Shown piece by piece: positions 1-10,127 of a DNA stretch of 10,296 nt. Made by a program: the position numbers and the translations under genes. Positions within the stretch are counted from its first letter, which is position 1, and each line of letters opens with the position of its first letter. Below the pieces are notes generated by a model that saw only the letters and a list, made by a program, of their open reading frames with translations, searched no databases and was not told where the DNA came from. This stretch comes from an archaeon (GTDB lineage: Archaea > Iainarchaeota > Iainarchaeia > Iainarchaeales > DATDZZ01), in contig DATDZZ010000076.1 in assembly GCA_035288565.1 (NCBI GenBank), forward strand, positions 1 through 10,296. Reading direction: 5' to 3'.

Positions 1-630
1 GGAGGCTTTGTAATGGTGGGGGTAATTTTAGGAACCCAAGTGAAGATGACTTCCTCAAAGCAGACTCCAAAGCTCTTAATTGACAATGCAGGAAAAAAAG
101 TGGCTCCTTTTGCTGAAGCCACCGGTGCAAGAGCAGGCTCCCTGCTTGGTGATGTGCGTCACGATCCGTTGCAATCGTTCATTGACGAAAGCAACTTCGC
201 TGTATTTTTAGACAATGAGTGGAAGAAGTTTTCTTTTGAAGAGCTTTGGAATTTAATGTCTGAAAGGCACCCTGATCTCATTGAAAAACACGAAAAAGGA
301 TATGAATCAATTTATTTCCCTGATGAGGAAAAAATTTATACTTATGGCAGTGATGAAAAAGGCAATGTTGTGAGAACAAGAATCTATTTGATTAACAGGA
401 GGCCTTACAAAGATAAAGTAATTAAGATCAAAACAAAGGATGCCTCCATAACACTTACTCCTGAGCATGAAGTTTTTACAGAATTTGAAAGCAAGAAGGT
501 ATTAGATATTTCAAATAAAGACAAAGCCCTCAGCTTGAAAATTAAGCATGGCCAAAATGATAGTGAAGAATTAAAGTTGCAAAAAAAGAAATTACCTCAA
601 GACATTCAAACTGTTTCTTCTTCATTTTAA
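1..630 (+). CDS. lonB: Archaeal LonB protease, N-terminal fragment (5'-partial, frame open to window start). It is fused to an N-terminal intein half and stops with TAA at 628-630.
   Basis: The translation ...KLLIDNAGKKVAPFAEATGARAGSLLGDVRHDPLQ matches the conserved LonB AAA+ segment that precedes the HDPFQ|SGGLGTPAH motif. After Q54 the sequence switches to an intein-like sequence (SFIDES...ITLTPEHEVFT). The same frame (frame 1) resumes LonB in the ORF at 1741. Confidence 0.85.
   Translation, partial: GGFVMVGVILGTQVKMTSSKQTPKLLIDNAGKKVAPFAEATGARAGSLLGDVRHDPLQSFIDESNFAVFLDNEWKKFSFEELWNLMSERHPDLIEKHEKGYESIYFPDEEKIYTYGSDEKGNVVRTRIYLINRRPYKDKVIKIKTKDASITLTPEHEVFTEFESKKVLDISNKDKALSLKIKHGQNDSEELKLQKKKLPQDIQTVSSSF
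175..627 (+). other. N-terminal intein splicing half (IntN, ~151 aa): Ser1, block A (SFIDESNFAVFL), block B (ITLTPEHEVFT), plus a ~45-aa tail.
   Basis: The extein motif DPLQ is interrupted exactly where LonB homologues read DPFQSGG. Block A-like and block B (TxxH) motifs are present. The ORF then ends, and no endonuclease or C-terminal blocks follow in this frame. Confidence 0.75.
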
Positions 631-649
631 GTAAATTGCAGGTTACTAA

Positions 650-667
650 TTTTTTTGTTTTTACTTT
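650..667 (+). terminator. Oligo-T tract (TTTTTTTGTTTTTACTTT) just after the stop of the LonB-N/IntN ORF. Likely archaeal terminator.
   Basis: Archaeal termination occurs at oligo-dT runs. A T7+T5 run begins 20 nt after the TAA. Confidence 0.45.
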
Positions 668-694
668 GAGGGGAAATCTGCTCTTTCCAAATTG

Positions 695-704
695 CTTTAA
701 ATTT
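695..704 (+). promoter_or_regulatory. TATA-like box (CTTTAAATTT), centred ~26 nt upstream of the HEG ATG at 726. Consistent with a leaderless transcript.
   Basis: AT-rich TATA-like element at the canonical archaeal spacing from the start codon. No Shine-Dalgarno motif in between. Confidence 0.4.
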
Positions 705-725
705 GAAAAATCAATTTTTTAATTG

Positions 726-1685
726 ATGATATTAGTAACAGATCAAGACATTGTTAATACATATTCCCATTATGACAGGCTTTCGTGTCAAAAATATTTA
801 GAATATTTAAAACTAGTAAAAGAGAACCCTTCGTTTGGCTATAAGCGTTGTTCAAAGATTTTGGGCATTCCTATGGGGAGATGCAGGTGGTGGCATACAA
901 AAAGATCCAAAAGAGGAAAGCCTTTGCCTTTGAAAACAGTTGACAAATTAAAGGAAGCAGGTTTTCTTCCCTTTAAATCAAATCACAGATATGCTGAAAG
1001 TATTTTTAGAATTTATGGGACATTATTAGGTGATGGGGGAATTGATTGCAGATTAAATACGATGTCGTTTATTTCTTCAGTCAAAGAAAATGTTGATTTA
1101 TGGGTAGAAGATTTAGTCAAAATTTTTCCTTTTATAAAAGAAAAAATAAATTTACGAGAGGGCGGAGAATATGGCCATTCTTATTGTATGCGGACTTATG
1201 ACAGGGCGGTAATAAGGTTTTTTGTGGCTTTGGGTGTCCCGGTTGGCGATAAGATGATAGTTCATTATTCTATTCCCGCTTATTTTAAAAATTTAAATAA
1301 AATAAATGTGAAAAGTTTCTTAGACGGTTTGTTTTCAAGTGAAATAGCCATTCCCAGAGCTGTTATTTCAAGAAAAACAAATTTTTTTAAAAATTTTAGT
1401 TTTAGCTTAGGGAAAACTATTGCTCTTGAGAAAGACCATTTAATATTTTTAAAAGACATTCAAAGGCTGACAGAAAATTTAGGAGTTAAATTCACCCCCA
1501 ATCTTAGAAAAGACGCAAATCATAAAAGAAAAAGAAAGGATGGAAAAGAATCTAATGGATGCAGAATTTTTTTTAGGTCAGGAATTCCAAACGTGTTAGA
1601 ATTTCAAAAGTTATTTCCATTAAAATATAGTGCTGAAAAGAAATTAAAATTTGATGAAGAAATTAAGAAAGCATTAAGCAATTAG
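726..1685 (+). CDS. Free-standing two-motif LAGLIDADG homing endonuclease with an N-terminal HTH-like extension.
   Basis: LAGLIDADG motif 1: IFRIYGTLLGDGGI, with the catalytic Asp in place. Motif 2: KSFLDGLFSSEIAI, with a catalytic Glu in place. The N-terminal segment CSKILGIPMGRCRWWHTKRSKRG resembles transposase/resolvase-type HTH (..LGIs..tvyrW..). The frame (frame 3) differs from the flanking lonB pieces. The first in-frame ATG is at 726, and the track's 723 is a TTG. Confidence 0.85.
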   Translation: MILVTDQDIVNTYSHYDRLSCQKYLEYLKLVKENPSFGYKRCSKILGIPMGRCRWWHTKRSKRGKPLPLKTVDKLKEAGFLPFKSNHRYAESIFRIYGTLLGDGGIDCRLNTMSFISSVKENVDLWVEDLVKIFPFIKEKINLREGGEYGHSYCMRTYDRAVIRFFVALGVPVGDKMIVHYSIPAYFKNLNKINVKSFLDGLFSSEIAIPRAVISRKTNFFKNFSFSLGKTIALEKDHLIFLKDIQRLTENLGVKFTPNLRKDANHKRKRKDGKESNGCRIFFRSGIPNVLEFQKLFPLKYSAEKKLKFDEEIKKALSN

Positions 1686-1703
1686 TTTTTAGTTTAAGTT
1701 TTT
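1686..1703 (+). terminator. T-rich tract (TTTTTAGTTTAAGTTTTT) directly after the HEG stop.
   Basis: Oligo-T runs immediately 3' of the TAG at 1683-1685. Confidence 0.35.
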
Positions 1704-1709
1704 ACATAC

Positions 1710-1719
1710 TTTTATATAT
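1710..1719 (+). promoter_or_regulatory. TATA-like box (TTTTATATAT), ~27 nt upstream of the ATG at 1741. Leaderless-type promoter for the IntC-LonB C-fragment.
   Basis: A strong TATA-like element at canonical spacing. An in-frame TAG at 1690-1692 lies upstream, so translation must initiate at 1741. Confidence 0.45.
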
Positions 1720-1740
1720 TTCACATATTCATATCTAATT

Positions 1741-1857
1741 ATGAAAATAATTAAAAGTAAGGTGGAAGAAAAAAAACAGTTAGACTATAATGGTTTTGTT
1801 TATAATGTCACAACTGAAACAGGAAATTTGTTCGTTGAAGATATTTTAGTTAGCAAT
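1741..1857 (+). other. C-terminal intein half (IntC, 39 aa): [39 protein letters not shown]. Blocks F/G. Terminal Asn followed by +1 Ser.
   Basis: Block F-like ([13 protein letters not shown]) and block G (ILVSN|S) motifs are present. The penultimate residue is Ser, not the usual His. It is followed immediately by SGGLGTPAH, which completes the LonB motif interrupted at 174. Confidence 0.75.
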
Positions 1858-3156
1858 TCAGGAGGGCTCGGAACTCCCGCACATCTAAGAGTTGAACCGG
1901 GTTTAATTCACAGAGTTAACGGCGGAGTTCTTTTCCTGGATGAAATTGCTACTCTTTCAATGAAGGCTCAGCAGGAACTTCTTACTGCAATGCAGGAAAA
2001 AAAATATGCAATTACCGGCCAGAGTGAAATGAGTTCAGGCGCTTTAACTAGAACTGAAGCAGTGCCATGCGATTTTGTTTTAGTGGCTGCAGGAAATTAT
2101 GAGGACTTGGAGAAAGTTCATCCGGCTTTAAGAAGCAGAATAAGAGGCTACGGATATGAAATTCATATGAATGCTGACATGGATGATTCAATTGAAAACA
2201 GGGAAAAAATTGTTCAGTTCATTGCACAGGAAGTTGTAAAGGACGGAAAGATTCCTCATTTCGGCAGGGAAGCAGCTGAATTAATTGTTTTCGAGGCAAG
2301 AAGAAGAGCTCAAAGAAAAAATAAGCTGACTTTAAAGCTGAGGGATTTAGGCGGGCTAATAAGAGCAAGCGGTGACATCGCAAAAGAAAAAAGCCATGCA
2401 ATTGTTGAGCCTCAGGATGTTTATGAAGCTAAAATGAATGCAAGGACTTTAGAGCAGCAAATGGTTGGAAAGATTATTGAAAATAAAAGAGACTATGATG
2501 TTTACTTGACTGAAGGTTCTGCTATTGGAAGAGTTAATGGCTTGGCTGTTTCAGGAGACGGGGACGCTGGAATGATTCTTCCGATTGAAGCAGAAATTGC
2601 GCCGGCAGCTTCTCAAAGCGAGGGAAAAATTATTGCAACAGGAAAGCTGGGAGAGATTGCAAAGGAAGCAGTTCAGAATGTTTCAGCTTTAATTAAAAAG
2701 CTTTCAGGCAAGGACATTTCAAAGCACGATCTTCACATTCAGTTTCTTCAGACTTATTCAGGAGTTGAAGGGGATTCCGCAAGCGTTTCAGTTGCAACAG
2801 CAGTAATTTCTGCGTTGGAAGGCATTCCAATAAAGCAGAGCCTTGCAATGACTGGCTCTTTAAGTGTGAGAGGAGAGGTTCTTCCTGTGGGTGGAGTGAC
2901 AAGCAAAGTTCAGGCAGCAATTAAAGCAGGCTTCAAGGAAGTAATTGTGCCTAAATCAAATTTAGAGGACATTATTCTTGAAAAAAATGAGTTAAGCAAA
3001 ATTAAAGTAATTCCTGCTTCTTCTTTAAGCGAAGTAATTGAAAACTCTTTTGTTAAAAGCGAAAAAAGAAACAGGCTTTTAAGGAGCTTAAAAAAATTCA
3101 TTAAAATAAGGGTTCCGAAAGTACTGGAAGCAGCAGGAAAAAAAACCCTGATTTAG
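1741..3156 (+). CDS. lonB: IntC plus the LonB protease C-terminal fragment (AAA+ Walker B through the Ser-Lys protease domain).
   Basis: After IntC: [34 protein letters not shown] (Walker B) ... [11 protein letters not shown] ... [13 protein letters not shown] ... [15 protein letters not shown] ... [29 protein letters not shown] (catalytic Ser/Lys region). It matches Thermococcales LonB closely along the whole length. Confidence 0.9.
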
Positions 3157-4376
3157 GAAAGCAGTAATCTTCCTTCCCTTAAAAAGAATTCAGCTCTTTT
3201 CAGTTTCCTTAATTTCCTTGTTTTAATTAACTTGAAATCAACTGTCTGCTTTTCCCTGTTAATTTTTTCAATCTTTCCAAGAAAAACTCCTTCATGGCTG
3301 TAAACAGGCATTCCGATTAAAAGCCTTGTAACTTTGTTTCTGATGTCAAGCATGTTAGAGAACTGGAACGCAGCATATAGTACTGTAAAGCTTGAAATTA
3401 TTGTAACTAAAAACAAATTCAAGTCAGCTGCTCCAATGAAAACCTGTCTCCCTGAATCCAAAATAAACCAGATAAGTACTGCTGAAACAACTGACCTGAA
3501 ATAATTTCTCAGCCTGAAAGCTTTCTTCAATAAAATTGCGTCCACCGATCTTCCGAAAAAGAAAATCAATGAAGAAATCACTGTAAATAAAATTATTTCA
3601 TAAATTGTTTGAATTCCCCTGAACACTATTTGTTCCCTGAACAGGCTTGTATAAGTGTCGTAAGCTGAAAAAAACCCAAAAACAAATACAAGTATTGAAG
3701 CAAGGTAAAGAGGAAAGCTTGCTCTGTGAGTGGAAACAGAGCCTGAAACAAATTTAATTAATTTATTTATTCTGCCAATAATTCCGAATCCGTAAAGCAT
3801 TAATAATGCTCCAGCCAGCCCTAAAACTAACTGCGATCCAAAGGTAGGGCTTGCCAAGTAAAGCAAAACAATTATTCCAGGAACTCCAAATACAAGTTTC
3901 TGAAGAGTAGGGTCGCTTAAAGCCTCTTTGATTGTAAAGATAGTTGACTCAATCTGCTTGGCCTGCTTTACAATAATCATTTCCTTTGAAATAATTCTTG
4001 CCCTGCTCTGCAGAATCGGAATCACTTGATCATCTTCAGCTCCGTCGGTAACCAAAACAAATCCGTCAGCCGGAAATTTTTCGAGAACCTGATCCAATTG
4101 CTCATTAATTTTTTTATCGGCTTCAAAACTAATTTTTCCTTTTCCCGTTAAAGTAGCGATTTCAACATTAGGGTAAAGTTTTTTCAGTTCATCTAACGCT
4201 TTCACTGCCCCAAAAATTGAGTTGGAGTCAGTGTCTCCAGGGTCTTTTGTTGCAAGCTTAACTGCTGCCTCAATATTTTTTTTTCGTCCAAAAACCGGAC
4301 CGGTAACGCCTGCCTTTTTTCCTAAATCATCGTCCCTGTCAACGCACACAACAAGAACATTTTTCACTTTATCCAT
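3153..4376 (-). CDS. DUF373 family archaeal integral membrane protein.
   Basis: The N-terminus [28 protein letters not shown]... is the hallmark opening of archaeal DUF373 proteins. It is followed by several hydrophobic TM segments. It is convergent with lonB and overlaps it by 4 bp. Confidence 0.65.
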
Positions 4377-8188: not shown

Positions 8189-8938
8189 ATGGTTAAATTA
8201 ATTTTAGATGACGCCCAGGAATTCAAGAAAGCTGTTGACGCTGTCTCTGTTTTAATTGATGAAGCCGAATTCATTGTTGATGAAAAAAGATTCGCTTTAA
8301 AGGCAACTGATCCAAGCCAGATCTCAATGGTTGACTTTGAATTGGATAAAAAAGCCTTCAAAAGCTATGAAGTAAAAAAGCCGACAAAAATCGGATTAGA
8401 TTTAAGCTATTTAAGCCAGGTAATGGGCAGAAGCAAAGCAAAAGAATCTCTTACAATAGAATTGGATGAAAAAGACTCAAGATTAAATATTACTTTTGAA
8501 GGCAATGCCAAAAGAAAATTTTCAATTCCGTTGCTTGACTTAAGCTCAACAGAGCTTCCTAACCCGAAAATTAATTTTGATGCAGAAATTAAAATGAATG
8601 CAGGCCTTCTTCAGGATGCATTGAAAGACGCTTCACTGATTTCAAATCACTTGACTTTAGGGGTTACAAGCGATTCATTTTTTGTGAATGCAAGTTCAAG
8701 CAAAGGAGAACTAAACAATGTTTCTCAGAAAAATGATTCAGATTTAAAGAAGCTTGAAGTAAAAAACGAGTGCAGTGCAATGTATCCATTGGACTTCCTT
8801 TCAGACATGCTTAAAGCGGCTTCTTCTTCGGATGAAATAGATTTATTTCTTAAAACAGATGCTCCAATAAAAATTTCCTACAAAATAGGCAGGGCGCAGA
8901 TTATCTACTTTTTGGCTCCAAGAATAGAGACAAGCTGA
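8189..8938 (+). CDS. pcn: DNA polymerase sliding clamp PCNA (paralog 1).
   Basis: MVKLILDDAQEFKKAVDAVSVLIDEAEFIVDEKRFALKATDPSQISMVDFELDKKAFKSYEV... and the C-terminal ...IIYFLAPRIETS are colinear with archaeal PCNA (ATDPSxV, LAPR motifs). A GGTGA RBS lies 5 nt upstream of ATG 8189. The track ORF from 8090 is an N-terminal over-extension overlapping the peptidase gene. Confidence 0.9.
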   Translation: MVKLILDDAQEFKKAVDAVSVLIDEAEFIVDEKRFALKATDPSQISMVDFELDKKAFKSYEVKKPTKIGLDLSYLSQVMGRSKAKESLTIELDEKDSRLNITFEGNAKRKFSIPLLDLSSTELPNPKINFDAEIKMNAGLLQDALKDASLISNHLTLGVTSDSFFVNASSSKGELNNVSQKNDSDLKKLEVKNECSAMYPLDFLSDMLKAASSSDEIDLFLKTDAPIKISYKIGRAQIIYFLAPRIETS

Positions 8939-8982
8939 CTCGAATTCAATTCAATTCTCAGAATCAGGATTTACTTATTATG

Positions 8983-9183
8983 GCCAGGTATTGAGCTTCA
9001 GCGAAGATCGTGTGTTTTCGCCAACCTTTTCTTAAAAGGTTGCAGGATCGAGCGCAAGCGAAGATCGTGCTTCGGTTCACTCGCTCGAAAGCGAGTAAGT
9101 GGACGAGGAGGGAGCCGCAAGATAAACATCTTTGAGGCCTTACCACCCTGGCTCCCCTCTGAACCGTCATTTGAAACGGTCTG
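8983..9183. ncRNA. GC-rich, hairpin-dense island in an AT-rich genome. Possible structured ncRNA or repeat element of unknown class, strand undetermined.
   Basis: A sharp local GC rise. Perfect hairpins: CAACCTTTT-CTT-AAAAGGTTG (9021-9043), CGAAG-atcgtg-CTTCG, CTCGC-tcgaaa-GCGAG, a long-range GGGAGCC (9110-9116)/GGCTCCC (9149-9155) stem, and ACCGT-catttgaa-ACGGT. An internal 13-nt direct repeat AGCGAAGATCGTG occurs at 9000-9012 and 9057-9069. No tRNA T-loop/cloverleaf was detectable. Confidence 0.3.
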
Positions 9184-9395: not shown

Positions 9396-10127
9396 ATGGG
9401 GATAAACTTGATTGAATTAAAGCGAGCAATGTTGTGGCAGAAAGTAATTGCATCAATTTCTTCTTTGATAAGTGAAGGAAATTTAAGGTTCTCAGATAAA
9501 GGGATTGGCTTCAAGGCAATTGATCCAAGCCAAATAGTTTTAGTTGATTTCTTTTTAGATAAAAAGAATTTCGAAAAATATGAAGTAGAGCCTTCTCTTA
9601 TCGGAGTGGATTTAGCTGAATTAAATAAAATAATGCAGAGAGCTTCAACTGAAGACAGGCTTTCAATGGAGTTAAGCGAAAGCGAGCTAAACTTGAATCT
9701 GGAAGGAGACCTTTCAAGGCACTTCAAACTTCCATTAATTGACTTAAATGAAGATGAAATTAAAATCCCTGAAGCAAGCTTTGAAGCAAAAATTGAAGTG
9801 AATGCAAGAAACCTGAAAGAAGCATTAAAGGACGCAGCCTTATTCGGCTCAAGCATTATATTAAAAGTTTCAAAAGGAAAATTAATGCTTGAAGCAAGAG
9901 GAAGCCAAGGACAGTTAAAAACAATTGTTAAAGGGGCAAAAGCATCTGTTGCAGGAAAAGACGAAATAGTTTCCAAGTATTCATTGAATTACTTAATCAA
10001 TATCTTGAAAGAAGCTGAAAACGAAAAAAAAGTTTTCCTTGAAATAAAATCTGATTCTCCAATAAAAGTTTCCTATAATTTAGGGGAAAGCACAATCCAG
10101 TTCCACCTTGCGCATATGATCATTTAA
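9396..10127 (+). CDS. Second, divergent PCNA sliding-clamp paralog.
   Basis: MGINLIELKRAMLWQKVIASISSLISEGNLRFSDKGIGFKAIDPSQIVLVDFFLDKKNFEKYEV... is colinear with PCNA1 over the full length (roughly 35-40% identity by eye). Shared blocks: IDPSQ, FxLPLIDL, LKDAxL. The C-terminus ...FHLAHMII replaces the usual LAPR/K motif. Confidence 0.85.
   Translation: MGINLIELKRAMLWQKVIASISSLISEGNLRFSDKGIGFKAIDPSQIVLVDFFLDKKNFEKYEVEPSLIGVDLAELNKIMQRASTEDRLSMELSESELNLNLEGDLSRHFKLPLIDLNEDEIKIPEASFEAKIEVNARNLKEALKDAALFGSSIILKVSKGKLMLEARGSQGQLKTIVKGAKASVAGKDEIVSKYSLNYLINILKEAENEKKVFLEIKSDSPIKVSYNLGESTIQFHLAHMII

Follow-up and report, generated by a model that had tools for sequence, protein, structure and literature searches.

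A fractured lonB gene in the Iainarchaeota, with split-intein halves on either side of a free-standing gene for a predicted LAGLIDADG endonuclease

Genes fractured by a split intein whose halves flank a free-standing endonuclease gene were described by Dassa, London, Stoddard, Schueler-Furman and Pietrokovski in 2009 (NAR 37:2560; PMC2677866) at 26 loci from ocean metagenomes that are probably viral. The hosts were eight DNA synthesis and repair enzymes and the endonucleases were GIY-YIG or Vsr-like, "not known to be present in inteins", while fracturing that involves a LAGLIDADG endonuclease was only a prediction (PMC2677866). The locus described here shares with these genes the split intein and intervening free-standing endonuclease gene, a downstream half that has its own Met and, in two-piece relatives, an overlap between the endonuclease and downstream ORFs. 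It differs in that the host is a protease gene, lonB, carried by a cellular archaeal chromosome, in that the endonuclease is of the LAGLIDADG type and has as its homologue the domain that contiguous inteins at the same site carry in frame, and in that empty, contiguous, two-piece and three-piece stages all occur within one gene family. No published report of a fractured lonB was found, and the present case extends the known "fractured gene" arrangement to a LAGLIDADG endonuclease, to cellular archaea and to Lon.

Among other described systems, 10 LonB inteins were listed for Euryarchaeota by Novikova et al. 2016 (PMC4760082). Contiguous, endonuclease-containing LonB inteins have the same host protein and, in three cases (P0076, P0171 and L067), the same insertion site, splicing blocks and endonuclease family, but they are single ORFs that splice in cis. 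Split inteins lacking an endonuclease gene (cyanobacterial DnaE, Nanoarchaeum equitans PolB, gp41-1 and NrdJ-1) resemble the lonB intein in being split where cis-inteins hold the endonuclease domain and in having an IntC of ca. 39 aa, and the lonB intein profile matches the NrdJ-1 intein structure; unlike them, the lonB cassette retains an endonuclease gene and its halves are linked at one locus. Finally, the cysteine-less split intein of Aes123 PolB1 (PMC11923092) has in common with the one studied here Ser1, Ser+1 and the complete absence of cysteine from IntN and IntC, but its host and lineage are unrelated, the activity of the lonB intein is predicted, and many relatives of the latter have Cys1 or Thr1.

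The window, i.e. the whole stretch of 10,296 nt that was analysed, carries this locus at positions 1-3156, where ORF translation gives three successive coding sequences (Table 1). LonB is interrupted at a conserved site between HDPLQ and SGGLGTP. The first ORF lies in frame 1, is open past the left edge of the window and stops at 628-630, its extein ending with ...GDVRHDPLQ at nt 174. The start codon lies upstream of the window, and in the closely related contig L001 the complete product (positions 3164-4330) has 388 aa, 237 of extein and 151 of IntN, and includes a Walker A motif (GVPGTGKS) and two hydrophobic helices that we read as a putative membrane anchor. The third ORF, again in frame 1, runs from an ATG at 1741 to a stop at 3154-3156; its intein part terminates in ...ILVSN, with the terminal Asn codon at 1855-1857, and passes directly into SGGLGTPAH, whose Ser is residue +1, followed by Walker B, the AAA+ lid and the Lon protease domain with its GDSAS motif.

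Table 1. Features of the fractured lonB locus in the window.
Feature	Position	Strand	Basis
lonB N-extein, 3' end	1..174	+	residues 180-237 of 237; TIGR00764 positions 142-195
N-intein (IntN, 151 aa) and stop codon	175..630	+	TIGR01445 intein_Nterm, E 2.8e-8
Spacer 1	631..725	+	oligo-T runs, upstream motif, TATA-like box
Predicted LAGLIDADG homing-endonuclease gene (319 aa and stop)	726..1685	+	AF2 fold, Foldseek, motifs
Spacer 2	1686..1740	+	oligo-T runs, TATA box
C-intein (IntC, 39 aa)	1741..1857	+	own ATG; blocks F/G; KlbA alignment
lonB C-extein (432 aa and stop)	1858..3156	+	TIGR00764, Pfam Lon_C, LonB_AAA-LID

Both extein pieces belong to archaeal LonB. The C-piece alone scores 640.7 bits against NCBIfam TIGR00764 (LonB; cut-off 516.6) and matches Pfam Lon_C and LonB_AAA-LID, its residues 33-451 aligning with profile positions 190-607, and the N-piece continues the profile exactly (residues 5-58 on positions 142-195). 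Uninterrupted relative P0070 reads straight through the junction (...GDVRHDPLQSGGLGTPPHL), so that nothing is missing from LonB between the two pieces, and the joined sequence is 70-77% identical to LonB proteins of 634-680 aa over 89-98% of its length. The anatomy given by the initial annotation, including the ORF limits, is upheld, and the two pieces are exactly colinear with uninterrupted LonB of relatives. Host-gene neighbours are cellular and encode DUF373, Band_7 and SpoIIM proteins, RNA polymerase subunit L, PCNA and ribosomal proteins.

The middle ORF, in frame 3, has an ATG at 726 (and a TTG at 723) and runs to a stop at 1683-1685; since the same frame has a stop at 720-722, it cannot extend further upstream. 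Its product begins with a helical domain of ca. 85 aa, followed by a first motif at about residues 94-105 (...IYGTLLGDGG; Asp103 at nt 1032-1034, Gly104 at 1035-1037) and a second at about residues 198-207 (...FLDGLFSSE; Glu206 at nt 1341-1343). The AF2 model (pLDDT 92.8, pTM 0.90) was matched by Foldseek to I-Tsp061I (7e-8), PI-SceI, I-DmoI and the TliVMA intein endonuclease, with a probability of 1.00 to I-Tsp061I, PI-SceI, I-DmoI, I-OnuI and I-SceI, and in 32 homologues G98, G102, D103, G104 and E206 are all invariant. The predicted fold thus supports a monomeric double-LAGLIDADG endonuclease, in agreement with the free-standing two-motif gene first proposed from the ORF and its ATG. Profile searches were less accommodating: Pfam LAGLIDADG profiles gave no match at E<=1, contrary to what that assignment would lead one to expect, and the only NCBIfam matches were to the endonuclease region of intein-containing RtcB (E 9.5e-17) and to RFC. 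The sequence is divergent, and membership in the LAGLIDADG family is therefore based on fold and motifs.

Among GTDB species genomes, at least 146 encode a member of this endonuclease family, most of them bearing the label Iainarchaeum or Woesearchaeota. The loci examined number 81 without redundancy and stem from as many as 79 species. In all 81 the endonuclease is at the lonB site, in the order N-extein, IntN, endonuclease, IntC, C-extein; 49 loci are in three pieces like the window, 27 in two and one is contiguous, the other four being cut by contig ends. In the two-piece form the endonuclease is still joined to IntN, giving an IntN of ca. 475 aa, and we know of no described natural split intein with such a fusion. 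The in-frame endonuclease domain of contiguous intein P0076 is a homologue of the free-standing enzyme. The coexistence of contiguous, two-piece and three-piece forms at one lonB site supports the suggestion, made when the locus was first annotated, that it represents an intermediate in how split inteins evolve.

The explanation that we consider best, and hold to be very probable, is that of a three-gene intein at lonB whose halves trans-splice to give full-length LonB and whose cassette homes. The first gene would supply the N-extein, with Walker A and the putative membrane anchor, joined to IntN; the second the homing endonuclease, counterpart of the endonuclease domain of same-site contiguous inteins; and the third IntC joined to the C-extein with Walker B, AAA+ lid and protease domain. 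The endonuclease gene and the C-piece would each be transcribed from their own archaeal TATA-type promoter into transcripts that are probably leaderless or have a short leader. After translation IntN and IntC would come together as a Hint fold and trans-splice the two LonB pieces, by an N-O acyl shift at Ser1, transesterification to Ser+1 and Asn cyclisation, yielding a LonB of ca. 669 aa joined as ...HDPLQ-SGGLGTP.... The endonuclease would cut intein-free lonB alleles, and repair would copy in the complete cassette, from IntN through the first promoter, the endonuclease gene and the second promoter to IntC, so that lonB would be broken in two at each invasion.

Several comparisons bear on mobility. 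The nearest neighbours of several fractured alleles are uninterrupted ones with 92-95% C-extein identity, and in two pairs (L090 versus L009 and L091 versus L016) syntenic DNA is 84-94% identical and the alignment breaks at the splice junction; intein-less alleles, which the initial annotation had envisaged as targets, thus exist in relatives, and the junction DNA of L090 and L091 provides candidates. On sequence identities, divergence of the cassette and of the host gene is incongruent in both directions, as in L022/L024 (N-extein 62% identical, IntN 88%) and in L012/L013 (90% and 51%, respectively). L028 and L038 have a degraded endonuclease and an intact lonB, which is what a homing cycle would predict. 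In the population of the window the endonuclease may be decaying, as suggested by a Gly104Val change at the invariant residue in four sibling assemblies and by strain SNPs in its gene, 4 of 5 of which are non-synonymous; this is a point against the preferred explanation. The comparisons among relatives weigh against the strongest competing view, namely that trans-splicing takes place but the cassette is immobile and vertically inherited, the endonuclease being retained because it serves the host, for instance in regulation by way of its N-terminal helical domain. Strong purifying selection on the endonuclease over deep divergence, a DNA motif conserved upstream of its promoter and the grouping of all Iainarchaeota-type three-piece loci in a single clade of a rough endonuclease-domain tree would fit that view, yet the interleaved alleles, the filled and empty sites in syntenic DNA, the incongruent divergences and the degraded endonucleases make it unlikely.

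The arrangement is widespread and apparently still mobile, although precise loss instead of gain could account for part of its sporadic distribution. We give about even chances to the wider proposal that an active homing cassette splits lonB into separately expressed genes at each invasion of an empty allele, with contiguous, two-piece and three-piece forms side by side in small-genome archaea (mostly labelled Iainarchaeum and Woesearchaeota), unrelated genes inserted later between the pieces and, in three species, a second split intein through which LonB would have to be put together from three polypeptides. If true, the family would be a natural and testable record of how split inteins form, and would offer ca. 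75 natural split inteins that are orthologous to one another, many with no cysteine at the junctions.

The splicing residues of the intein halves are conserved. IntN and IntC are on separate ORFs, as in split inteins, and IntC has its own start codon, in most loci an ATG that precedes the junction by 39 codons. IntN of the window scores 34.6 bits against TIGR01445 (cut-off 24.5), the Mja KlbA intein aligns with IntC through its C-terminal blocks, and a profile of the fused IntN+IntC alignment (A2) finds solved inteins, with Mja KlbA first (E 4.6e-19), then CDC21, RadA, NrdJ-1 and hedgehog Hint, so that the intein assignment made at the outset is supported. Each of 25 members searched matches Pfam Intein_splicing at E<=0.01 (the best at 4e-12), the halves of the window on their own reaching 17.5-19.8 bits, under the gathering cut-off of 35.8. 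In all of the ca. 75 loci residue 1 is a nucleophile (S, C or T; Ser in the window, nt 175-177); TPEH of block B (nt 457-468, IntN residues 95-98) is nearly invariant, with T95, P96 and H98 invariant in A2, and the terminal Asn and Ser+1 are invariant (...VSN followed by SGG in the window). The final ca. 30 aa of IntN form a tail without conservation, and no clear charge complementarity was seen between IntN (-4) and IntC (-2) of the window.

The penultimate residue of an intein is usually His. In the window it is Ser, and opposite the Asp of the C-terminal motif of KlbA all members have Asn; both would suit a situation in which the LonB fragments join non-covalently and the intein halves act as an affinity clamp devoid of splicing chemistry. 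Intein-derived interaction domains act in this way for split NrdA of phage Aeh1, and, as a precedent, assembly with no splicing is reported (PMC3045599). A mere clamp would have no need of catalytic residues, however, and their retention at every position across ca. 75 diverged loci counts against it, which renders this reading decidedly improbable and leaves trans-splicing as the preferred one.

A pseudogene in decay, or a contiguous intein disrupted by frameshifts that arose in sequencing or assembly, might be suspected from three ORFs in two frames over 3 kb of a metagenome contig and from the non-synonymous strain SNPs in the endonuclease. The three-ORF layout recurs on four other metagenome contigs (L001-L004) at 99.6-99.8% identity, and no indel separates them from the window over the positions in common (up to 9005). 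With five independent assemblies sharing an indel-free layout a sequencing artefact is not tenable, as had been anticipated, and all extein SNPs between the window and its sibling assemblies are synonymous. The 49 three-piece and 27 two-piece loci moreover come from different species, and dN/dS, well under 1 throughout, indicates that every part is under purifying selection: mostly 0.02-0.19 for the exteins, 0.09-0.28 in most pairs for IntN (maximum 0.55), 0-0.18 in most pairs for IntC and 0.05-0.22 in most unsaturated pairs for the endonuclease, with two pairs at 0.36-0.38. Together with the conserved start codons and promoters, the stops in every frame of the spacers and the other genes found between the pieces in relatives, these data already contradict such a reading, to which we attach very little credence.

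The endonuclease gene and the C-piece also appear to have their own expression signals. Past the N-piece stop there are oligo-T runs at 650-656 and 658-662, a conserved motif upstream of the endonuclease promoter at 669-684 (GGGGAAATCTGCTCTT) and a TATA-like box, TTTAAA, at 696-701; past the endonuclease stop, oligo-T runs at 1686-1690 and 1699-1703 precede a TATA box, TTTATATA, at 1711-1718. Both boxes begin 30 nt before the next ATG. Among relatives a TATA-like motif starts at -40 to -26 of the endonuclease gene in 33 of 42 three-piece loci (3.9 expected) and at the same distance from the C-piece in 30 of 43 (7.3 expected), whatever lies upstream. The oligo-T tract and TATA-like box originally noted at each junction are thus present, and the three independently expressed units deduced from them gain comparative support from the conserved boxes and from opposite-strand genes between the pieces in some relatives: L038 has AAA_14/DUF4143 and PanD genes there, L042, L083 and L037 have unassigned ORFs of 364-390 aa, and L052 has a Vsr gene along with a same-strand C5 methylase. 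Recoding into one polypeptide that splices in cis, by frameshifts or by the translational bypass that Dassa et al. raised for fractured genes (PMC2677866), has nothing specific in its favour beyond that suggestion and is the least credible reading, as it needs two frame changes and the crossing of spacers of 95 and 55 nt that hold stops in all frames, while spacers in relatives reach 3.8 kb and contain opposite-strand genes. Finally, in 16 loci of the two-piece form the start of IntC overlaps the endonuclease stop as ATGA, which implies translational coupling.

In the window, lonB is distributed over three ORFs: an N-piece encoding the LonB N-extein and an N-terminal intein half (IntN), an endonuclease gene, and a C-piece encoding the C-terminal intein half (IntC) and the C-extein. 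This layout, put forward in the initial annotation, was borne out by the positions, frames and stops of the ORFs, and upstream extension of the endonuclease ORF is barred by a frame-3 stop.

Coordinates of the lonB pieces and of other features of the window
Feature	Coordinates	Strand	Frame	Remark
N-piece ORF	enters at left edge; stop 628-630	+	1	
IntN	175-627			Ser first
CCGGAAA(N2-3)C(N)CTC motif	669-684			GGGGAAATCTGCTCTT
TATA-like box of the endonuclease gene	696-701			TTTAAA, 30 nt 5' of ATG
Stop upstream of the endonuclease ORF	720-722		3	
Endonuclease ORF	ATG 726; stop 1683-1685	+	3	
Endonuclease codon 104	1035-1037			Gly
TATA-like box of the C-piece	1711-1718			TTTATATA, 30 nt 5' of ATG
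C-piece ORF	ATG 1741; stop 3154-3156	+	1	
IntC	1741-1857			ends ILVSN; Ser+1 directly after
PCNA gene	8189-8938			
G+C-rich island	8982-9175			
PCNA gene	9396-10127			

N-piece residues 5-58 correspond to positions 142-195 of the NCBIfam LonB equivalog profile TIGR00764 and C-piece residues 33-451 to positions 190-607, with 640.7 bits for the C-piece alone (cut-off 516.6), and the uninterrupted LonB of a relative (P0070, 638 aa) reads GDVRHDPLQSGGLGTPPHL across the junction. The extein parts therefore abut exactly with no residues missing, in agreement with the colinearity that had been proposed. Sequencing or assembly frameshifts are excluded as the source of the split: none was found in four independently assembled metagenome contigs (L001-L004), which are 99.6-99.8% identical to the window, have no indels over the common window positions (up to 9005), contain the same three ORFs and encode an identical C-piece protein. 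The 5' end of lonB is absent from the window and was found in L001, where the full N-piece (388 aa, L001 3164-4330) is made up of 237 extein residues, including Walker A (GVPGTGKS), and the 151 residues of IntN; two hydrophobic stretches of this extein are read as a putative membrane anchor. The observation is confirmed and its interpretation as a fractured lonB is supported.

Profile searches corroborated the assignment of the two intein halves. IntN, with TPEH at residues 95-98, matches TIGR01445 (intein_Nterm) with 34.6 bits for a cut-off of 24.5, and IntN and IntC joined in silico match the KlbA mini-intein of Methanocaldococcus jannaschii (2jmz, E 1.3e-4) in both N- and C-terminal blocks. 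A fused IntN+IntC profile built from the sequences of 25 relatives has KlbA as its best-listed match (4.6e-19) and also matches the CDC21, RadA, VMA and TFIIB inteins, PI-PkoII, the naturally split NrdJ-1 intein and Hedgehog Hint domains; all 25 fused sequences match Pfam Intein_splicing. Across loci, intein residue 1 is without exception S, C or T, that is nucleophiles only, TPEH almost never varies, the terminal Asn of IntC and the extein Ser+1 are invariant, and IntC, counted from the first ATG in the C-piece, comprises 39 aa in most loci. The window's IntN and IntC contain no cysteine, and cysteine-less split inteins have been described as both rare and useful (PMC11923092). Charge complementarity between IntN and IntC gave overall no clear signal; the first 18 IntC residues carry about +3 in split forms versus -4, 0 and +1 in three contiguous forms, which are too few to conclude.

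Since a Pfam scan of the endonuclease detected no LAGLIDADG family at E<=1 and a PDB sequence search returned noise only, its identity was taken from structure prediction and Foldseek. The model, obtained with an alignment of 32 homologues (pLDDT 92.8, pTM 0.90), has I-Tsp061I as its top match (7e-8), followed by PI-SceI, I-DmoI, the TliVMA intein endonuclease, I-OnuI and I-SceI, and this predicted fold places the middle ORF with monomeric double-motif LAGLIDADG enzymes. Motif 1 IYGTLLGDGG (Asp103) and motif 2 FLDGLFSSE (Glu206) are invariant in homologues at 33-64% identity, among which an additional helical N-terminal domain of ca. 85 aa is likewise conserved. The separate two-motif LAGLIDADG ORF of the initial annotation is thus upheld by predicted fold, Foldseek and motifs, and not by Pfam profiles.

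Walker B, the lid and the protease domain (GDSAS) are all encoded by the C-piece and Walker A by the N-piece, so that, from the domain order of LonB, neither piece alone would be an active Lon. Trans-splicing is the best-supported mechanism predicted for the window's LonB: IntN and IntC would associate and then splice in trans through oxyester intermediates via Ser1 and Ser+1, with Asn cyclisation; the predicted product is a LonB of ca. 669 aa and ca. 73 kDa.

The window locus belongs to a large family, spread across several archaeal lineages, in which successive architectures of the same element are preserved. A database search with the endonuclease returned 69 clusters of 243-402 aa, none longer, whose source names, where present, are Diapherotrites or ainarchaeum MAGs. 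An exhaustive HMM search gave 1006 cluster representatives at E<=1e-3, with lengths mostly in the three architecture classes given below; the set also includes generic intein endonuclease domains in other host proteins, some of them much longer. With each GTDB species represented by a single genome, a scan found relatives encoded in at least 146 genomes, from which 79 loci were retrieved; their record titles, as deposited, are mostly Iainarchaeum and Woesearchaeota, with Nanoarchaeia, Nanoarchaeota, Micrarchaeota, Parvarchaeota, some "Methanosarcinales" and one Chloroflexi contig.

Loci were classified by tblastn of five segments together with stop-to-stop ORFs, and the order N-extein, IntN, endonuclease, IntC and C-extein was found at the same lonB site in every locus examined. 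Among 81 non-redundant loci, 49 are three-piece as in the window, 27 are two-piece, with N-extein, IntN and endonuclease in one ORF (IntN part ca. 475 aa) and IntC and C-extein in a second, one is fully contiguous (L067, an intact 1164-codon ORF) and four are cut by contig ends. Two further contiguous proteins, P0076 (1135 aa) and P0171 (1136 aa), came from the LonB search; both carry an endonuclease domain in frame, to which the whole length of the window's free-standing protein is homologous (33% identity, E 2e-42). The same site holds a different, unrelated intein in archaeon GW2011_AR10 (P0149) and in P0187.

Other LonB inteins were encountered in these loci. In three species, a second one lies in the C-extein between EAVP and CDF, in the VLVAAGN region (L008 6098-9176, L007 6902-10091, L029 8134-11255), and is itself two-piece, IntN2 being joined to a related endonuclease domain and IntC2 to the remaining extein in an overlapping separate ORF; LonB is there in three extein fragments and two predicted trans-splicing reactions would be needed. 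A third, contiguous intein occurs in the Walker A region of the N-extein (L005 2775-4994; also L048, L087 and L031), with Pfam Intein_splicing and LAGLIDADG_3, and therefore inteins occupy at least three sites of LonB in these lineages.

That the pieces form three independently expressed units rather than one error-broken ORF, as initially proposed, gains comparative support from upstream boxes and intervening genes. In three-piece loci a TATA-like box stands at a fixed distance 5' of both downstream genes (for example TATTTAAT, ATTTAAAC, GATTATAAA and GTTTATAAAT). The motif TT[TA][AT]A[AT], starting 26-40 nt before the start codon, was found upstream of the C-piece in 30/43 loci (7.3 expected from shuffles) and of the endonuclease gene in 33/42 (3.9 expected). 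Its presence does not depend on the distance to the end of the preceding gene, be it 22 nt or 3.8 kb, and it is conspicuous in G+C-richer genomes. In the window, oligo-T runs follow each stop; in L001, a TATA-like box stands at ca. 3130, 5' of the N-piece. A scan for sigma-70 promoters and intrinsic terminators, which performed at chance level and is inapplicable to archaea, was replaced by this anchored comparison. Separately, a conserved motif CCGGAAA(N2-3)C(N)CTC lies ca. 45-60 nt 5' of the endonuclease ATG, just before the TATA-like box; most loci of the Iainarchaeota type (L009, L010, L015 and L038 among them) have it at that position, and it may represent regulatory DNA or a coding-sequence remnant.

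Unrelated genes lie between the pieces in several loci: AAA_14/DUF4143 and PanD genes on the opposite strand in L038, ORFs of 364-390 aa without Pfam match, likewise on the opposite strand, in L042, L083 and L037, and a same-strand C5 DNA methylase with an opposite-strand Vsr gene in L052; in L045 and L051, 1.9 kb separate the N-piece from the endonuclease gene. A single transcript or a single recoded polypeptide should therefore be impossible in species with such genes. In 16 two-piece loci the IntC ATG overlaps the endonuclease stop as ATGA, a mark of translational coupling, which suggests an operon for the two-piece form, as against separate promoters for the three-piece form. Many Iainarchaeota loci (L026 7147-7845, L044 7080-7772, L029, L032, L033, L011, L036, L021) have, 3' of the endonuclease gene and 5' of the C-piece, an ORF of ca. 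230 aa resembling Zn-dependent phospholipase C (Zn_dep_PLPC-like), which may be cargo carried in the cassette; the L038 and L052 genes named above are inserted in the same interval.

Intein-less lonB alleles were found in relatives: of the 120 LonB proteins that best match the joined exteins, 113 lack any interruption (617-680 aa), with source names, where present, of Diapherotrites or Micrarchaeota MAGs. Several fractured loci have their closest C-extein match in an uninterrupted allele (L009/P0151 and L016/P0089, 95% each; L019/P0147, 94%; L034/P0113, 92%). The contigs of P0151 (L090) and P0089 (L091) have a window-like neighbourhood, with Lactamase_B upstream and DUF373 and Band_7 downstream, and match L009 and L016, respectively, at 80-94% nucleotide identity to either side of the splice junction, where the alignment breaks; these two pairs compare a filled with an empty site (around 5575 in L090 and 5618 in L091).

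Cassette and host gene have not diverged in step, and the mismatch goes both ways: L022/L024 share 62% identity in the N-extein, 88% in IntN and 71% in the endonuclease, L012/L013 share 90%, 51% and 54%, and L013/L018 share 99%, 72% and 85%. Rate differences as the sole cause cannot yield both directions. The cassette seems to travel, or to be swapped, as one unit, and precise loss may contribute to the sporadic pattern. A rough NJ tree of endonuclease domains puts contiguous forms basal to Woesearchaeota-type split forms and Iainarchaeota-type three-piece forms in a separate clade; any direction of architectural change that we infer is conditional, as this tree, without support values, cannot fix it.

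Nei-Gojobori dN/dS, calculated for pairs with unsaturated dS, was 0.05-0.22 for most endonuclease pairs (L015/L016 0.08, L013/L018 0.12, L059/L062 0.05), with two outlying pairs at 0.36 and 0.38, one of which includes a frameshifted copy. Values were 0.09-0.28 for most IntN pairs (maximum 0.55), mostly 0-0.18 for IntC (0.27 in one pair) and mostly 0.02-0.19 for the exteins (0.28 in one pair). In the window's own population, all LonB extein SNPs are synonymous and 4/5 endonuclease SNPs are non-synonymous. Gly104, next after the catalytic Asp of motif 1, is invariant in 32 homologues and kept in the window, and is Val in all of L001-L004; the endonuclease may be starting to decay, or losing activity, in this population. 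It has clearly decayed in L028 (truncated) and L038 (frameshifted), in both of which lonB is intact.

The closest described arrangement is that of the fractured genes of Dassa et al. (2009), 26 probably viral ocean-metagenome loci for eight DNA synthesis or repair enzymes, with free-standing GIY-YIG or Vsr-like endonucleases, both stated as not known inside inteins; LAGLIDADG and HNH enzymes were only suggested ("could fracture genes"), and the model starts from a mini-intein invaded by an endonuclease (PMC2677866). In contrast, the window has the intein's own LAGLIDADG domain type, a cellular archaeal host and a protease gene. Contiguous LonB inteins are known from Euryarchaeota, with 10 in Novikova et al. 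2016 (PMC4760082). A full-text literature search of partial coverage, where absence is not proof, gave no report of a fractured lonB with a split intein and a free-standing LAGLIDADG enzyme.

The origin of split inteins from contiguous endonuclease-bearing ones has so far been modelled from few, probably viral, metagenomic loci with non-intein endonuclease types. Here, one cellular host gene presents several states, empty, contiguous, two-piece (endonuclease on IntN, coupled IntC) and three-piece with putative separate promoters, and later states with inserted genes or a decayed endonuclease at the same site, so that the order of steps and the fitness cost become testable. A quality-control protease, usually membrane-anchored, would depend on predicted trans-splicing in many species of small-genome archaeal lineages. 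The family also represents dozens of diverged natural split inteins of predicted activity, in which position 1 is Ser, Thr or Cys and position +1 is Ser, and has application potential.

The endonuclease family may fracture, or flank, genes other than lonB. Two free-standing homologues from the exhaustive HMM search were examined for such genes: one lies on too short a contig, and the other (L089 26-1018) is immediately 5' of an ordinary lysyl-tRNA synthetase (LysRS) gene, seemingly outside lonB, on a short contig where the upstream region is not visible.

Finally, the window was scanned for tRNA and Rfam families without a match. This includes a G+C-rich island of ca. 190 nt (no Rfam match even at E<=1) inside the A+T-rich spacer between two tandem PCNA paralogues, which are 37% identical to each other. 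The island folds better than shuffles (z -3.35), ca. 56 nt of it (window ca. 9013-9085) are absent from strain L001, and one hairpin shows a compensatory change between the window and L001 (CTCGC...GCGAG to CTCGG...CCGAG), which makes the island a candidate for an undescribed structured RNA.
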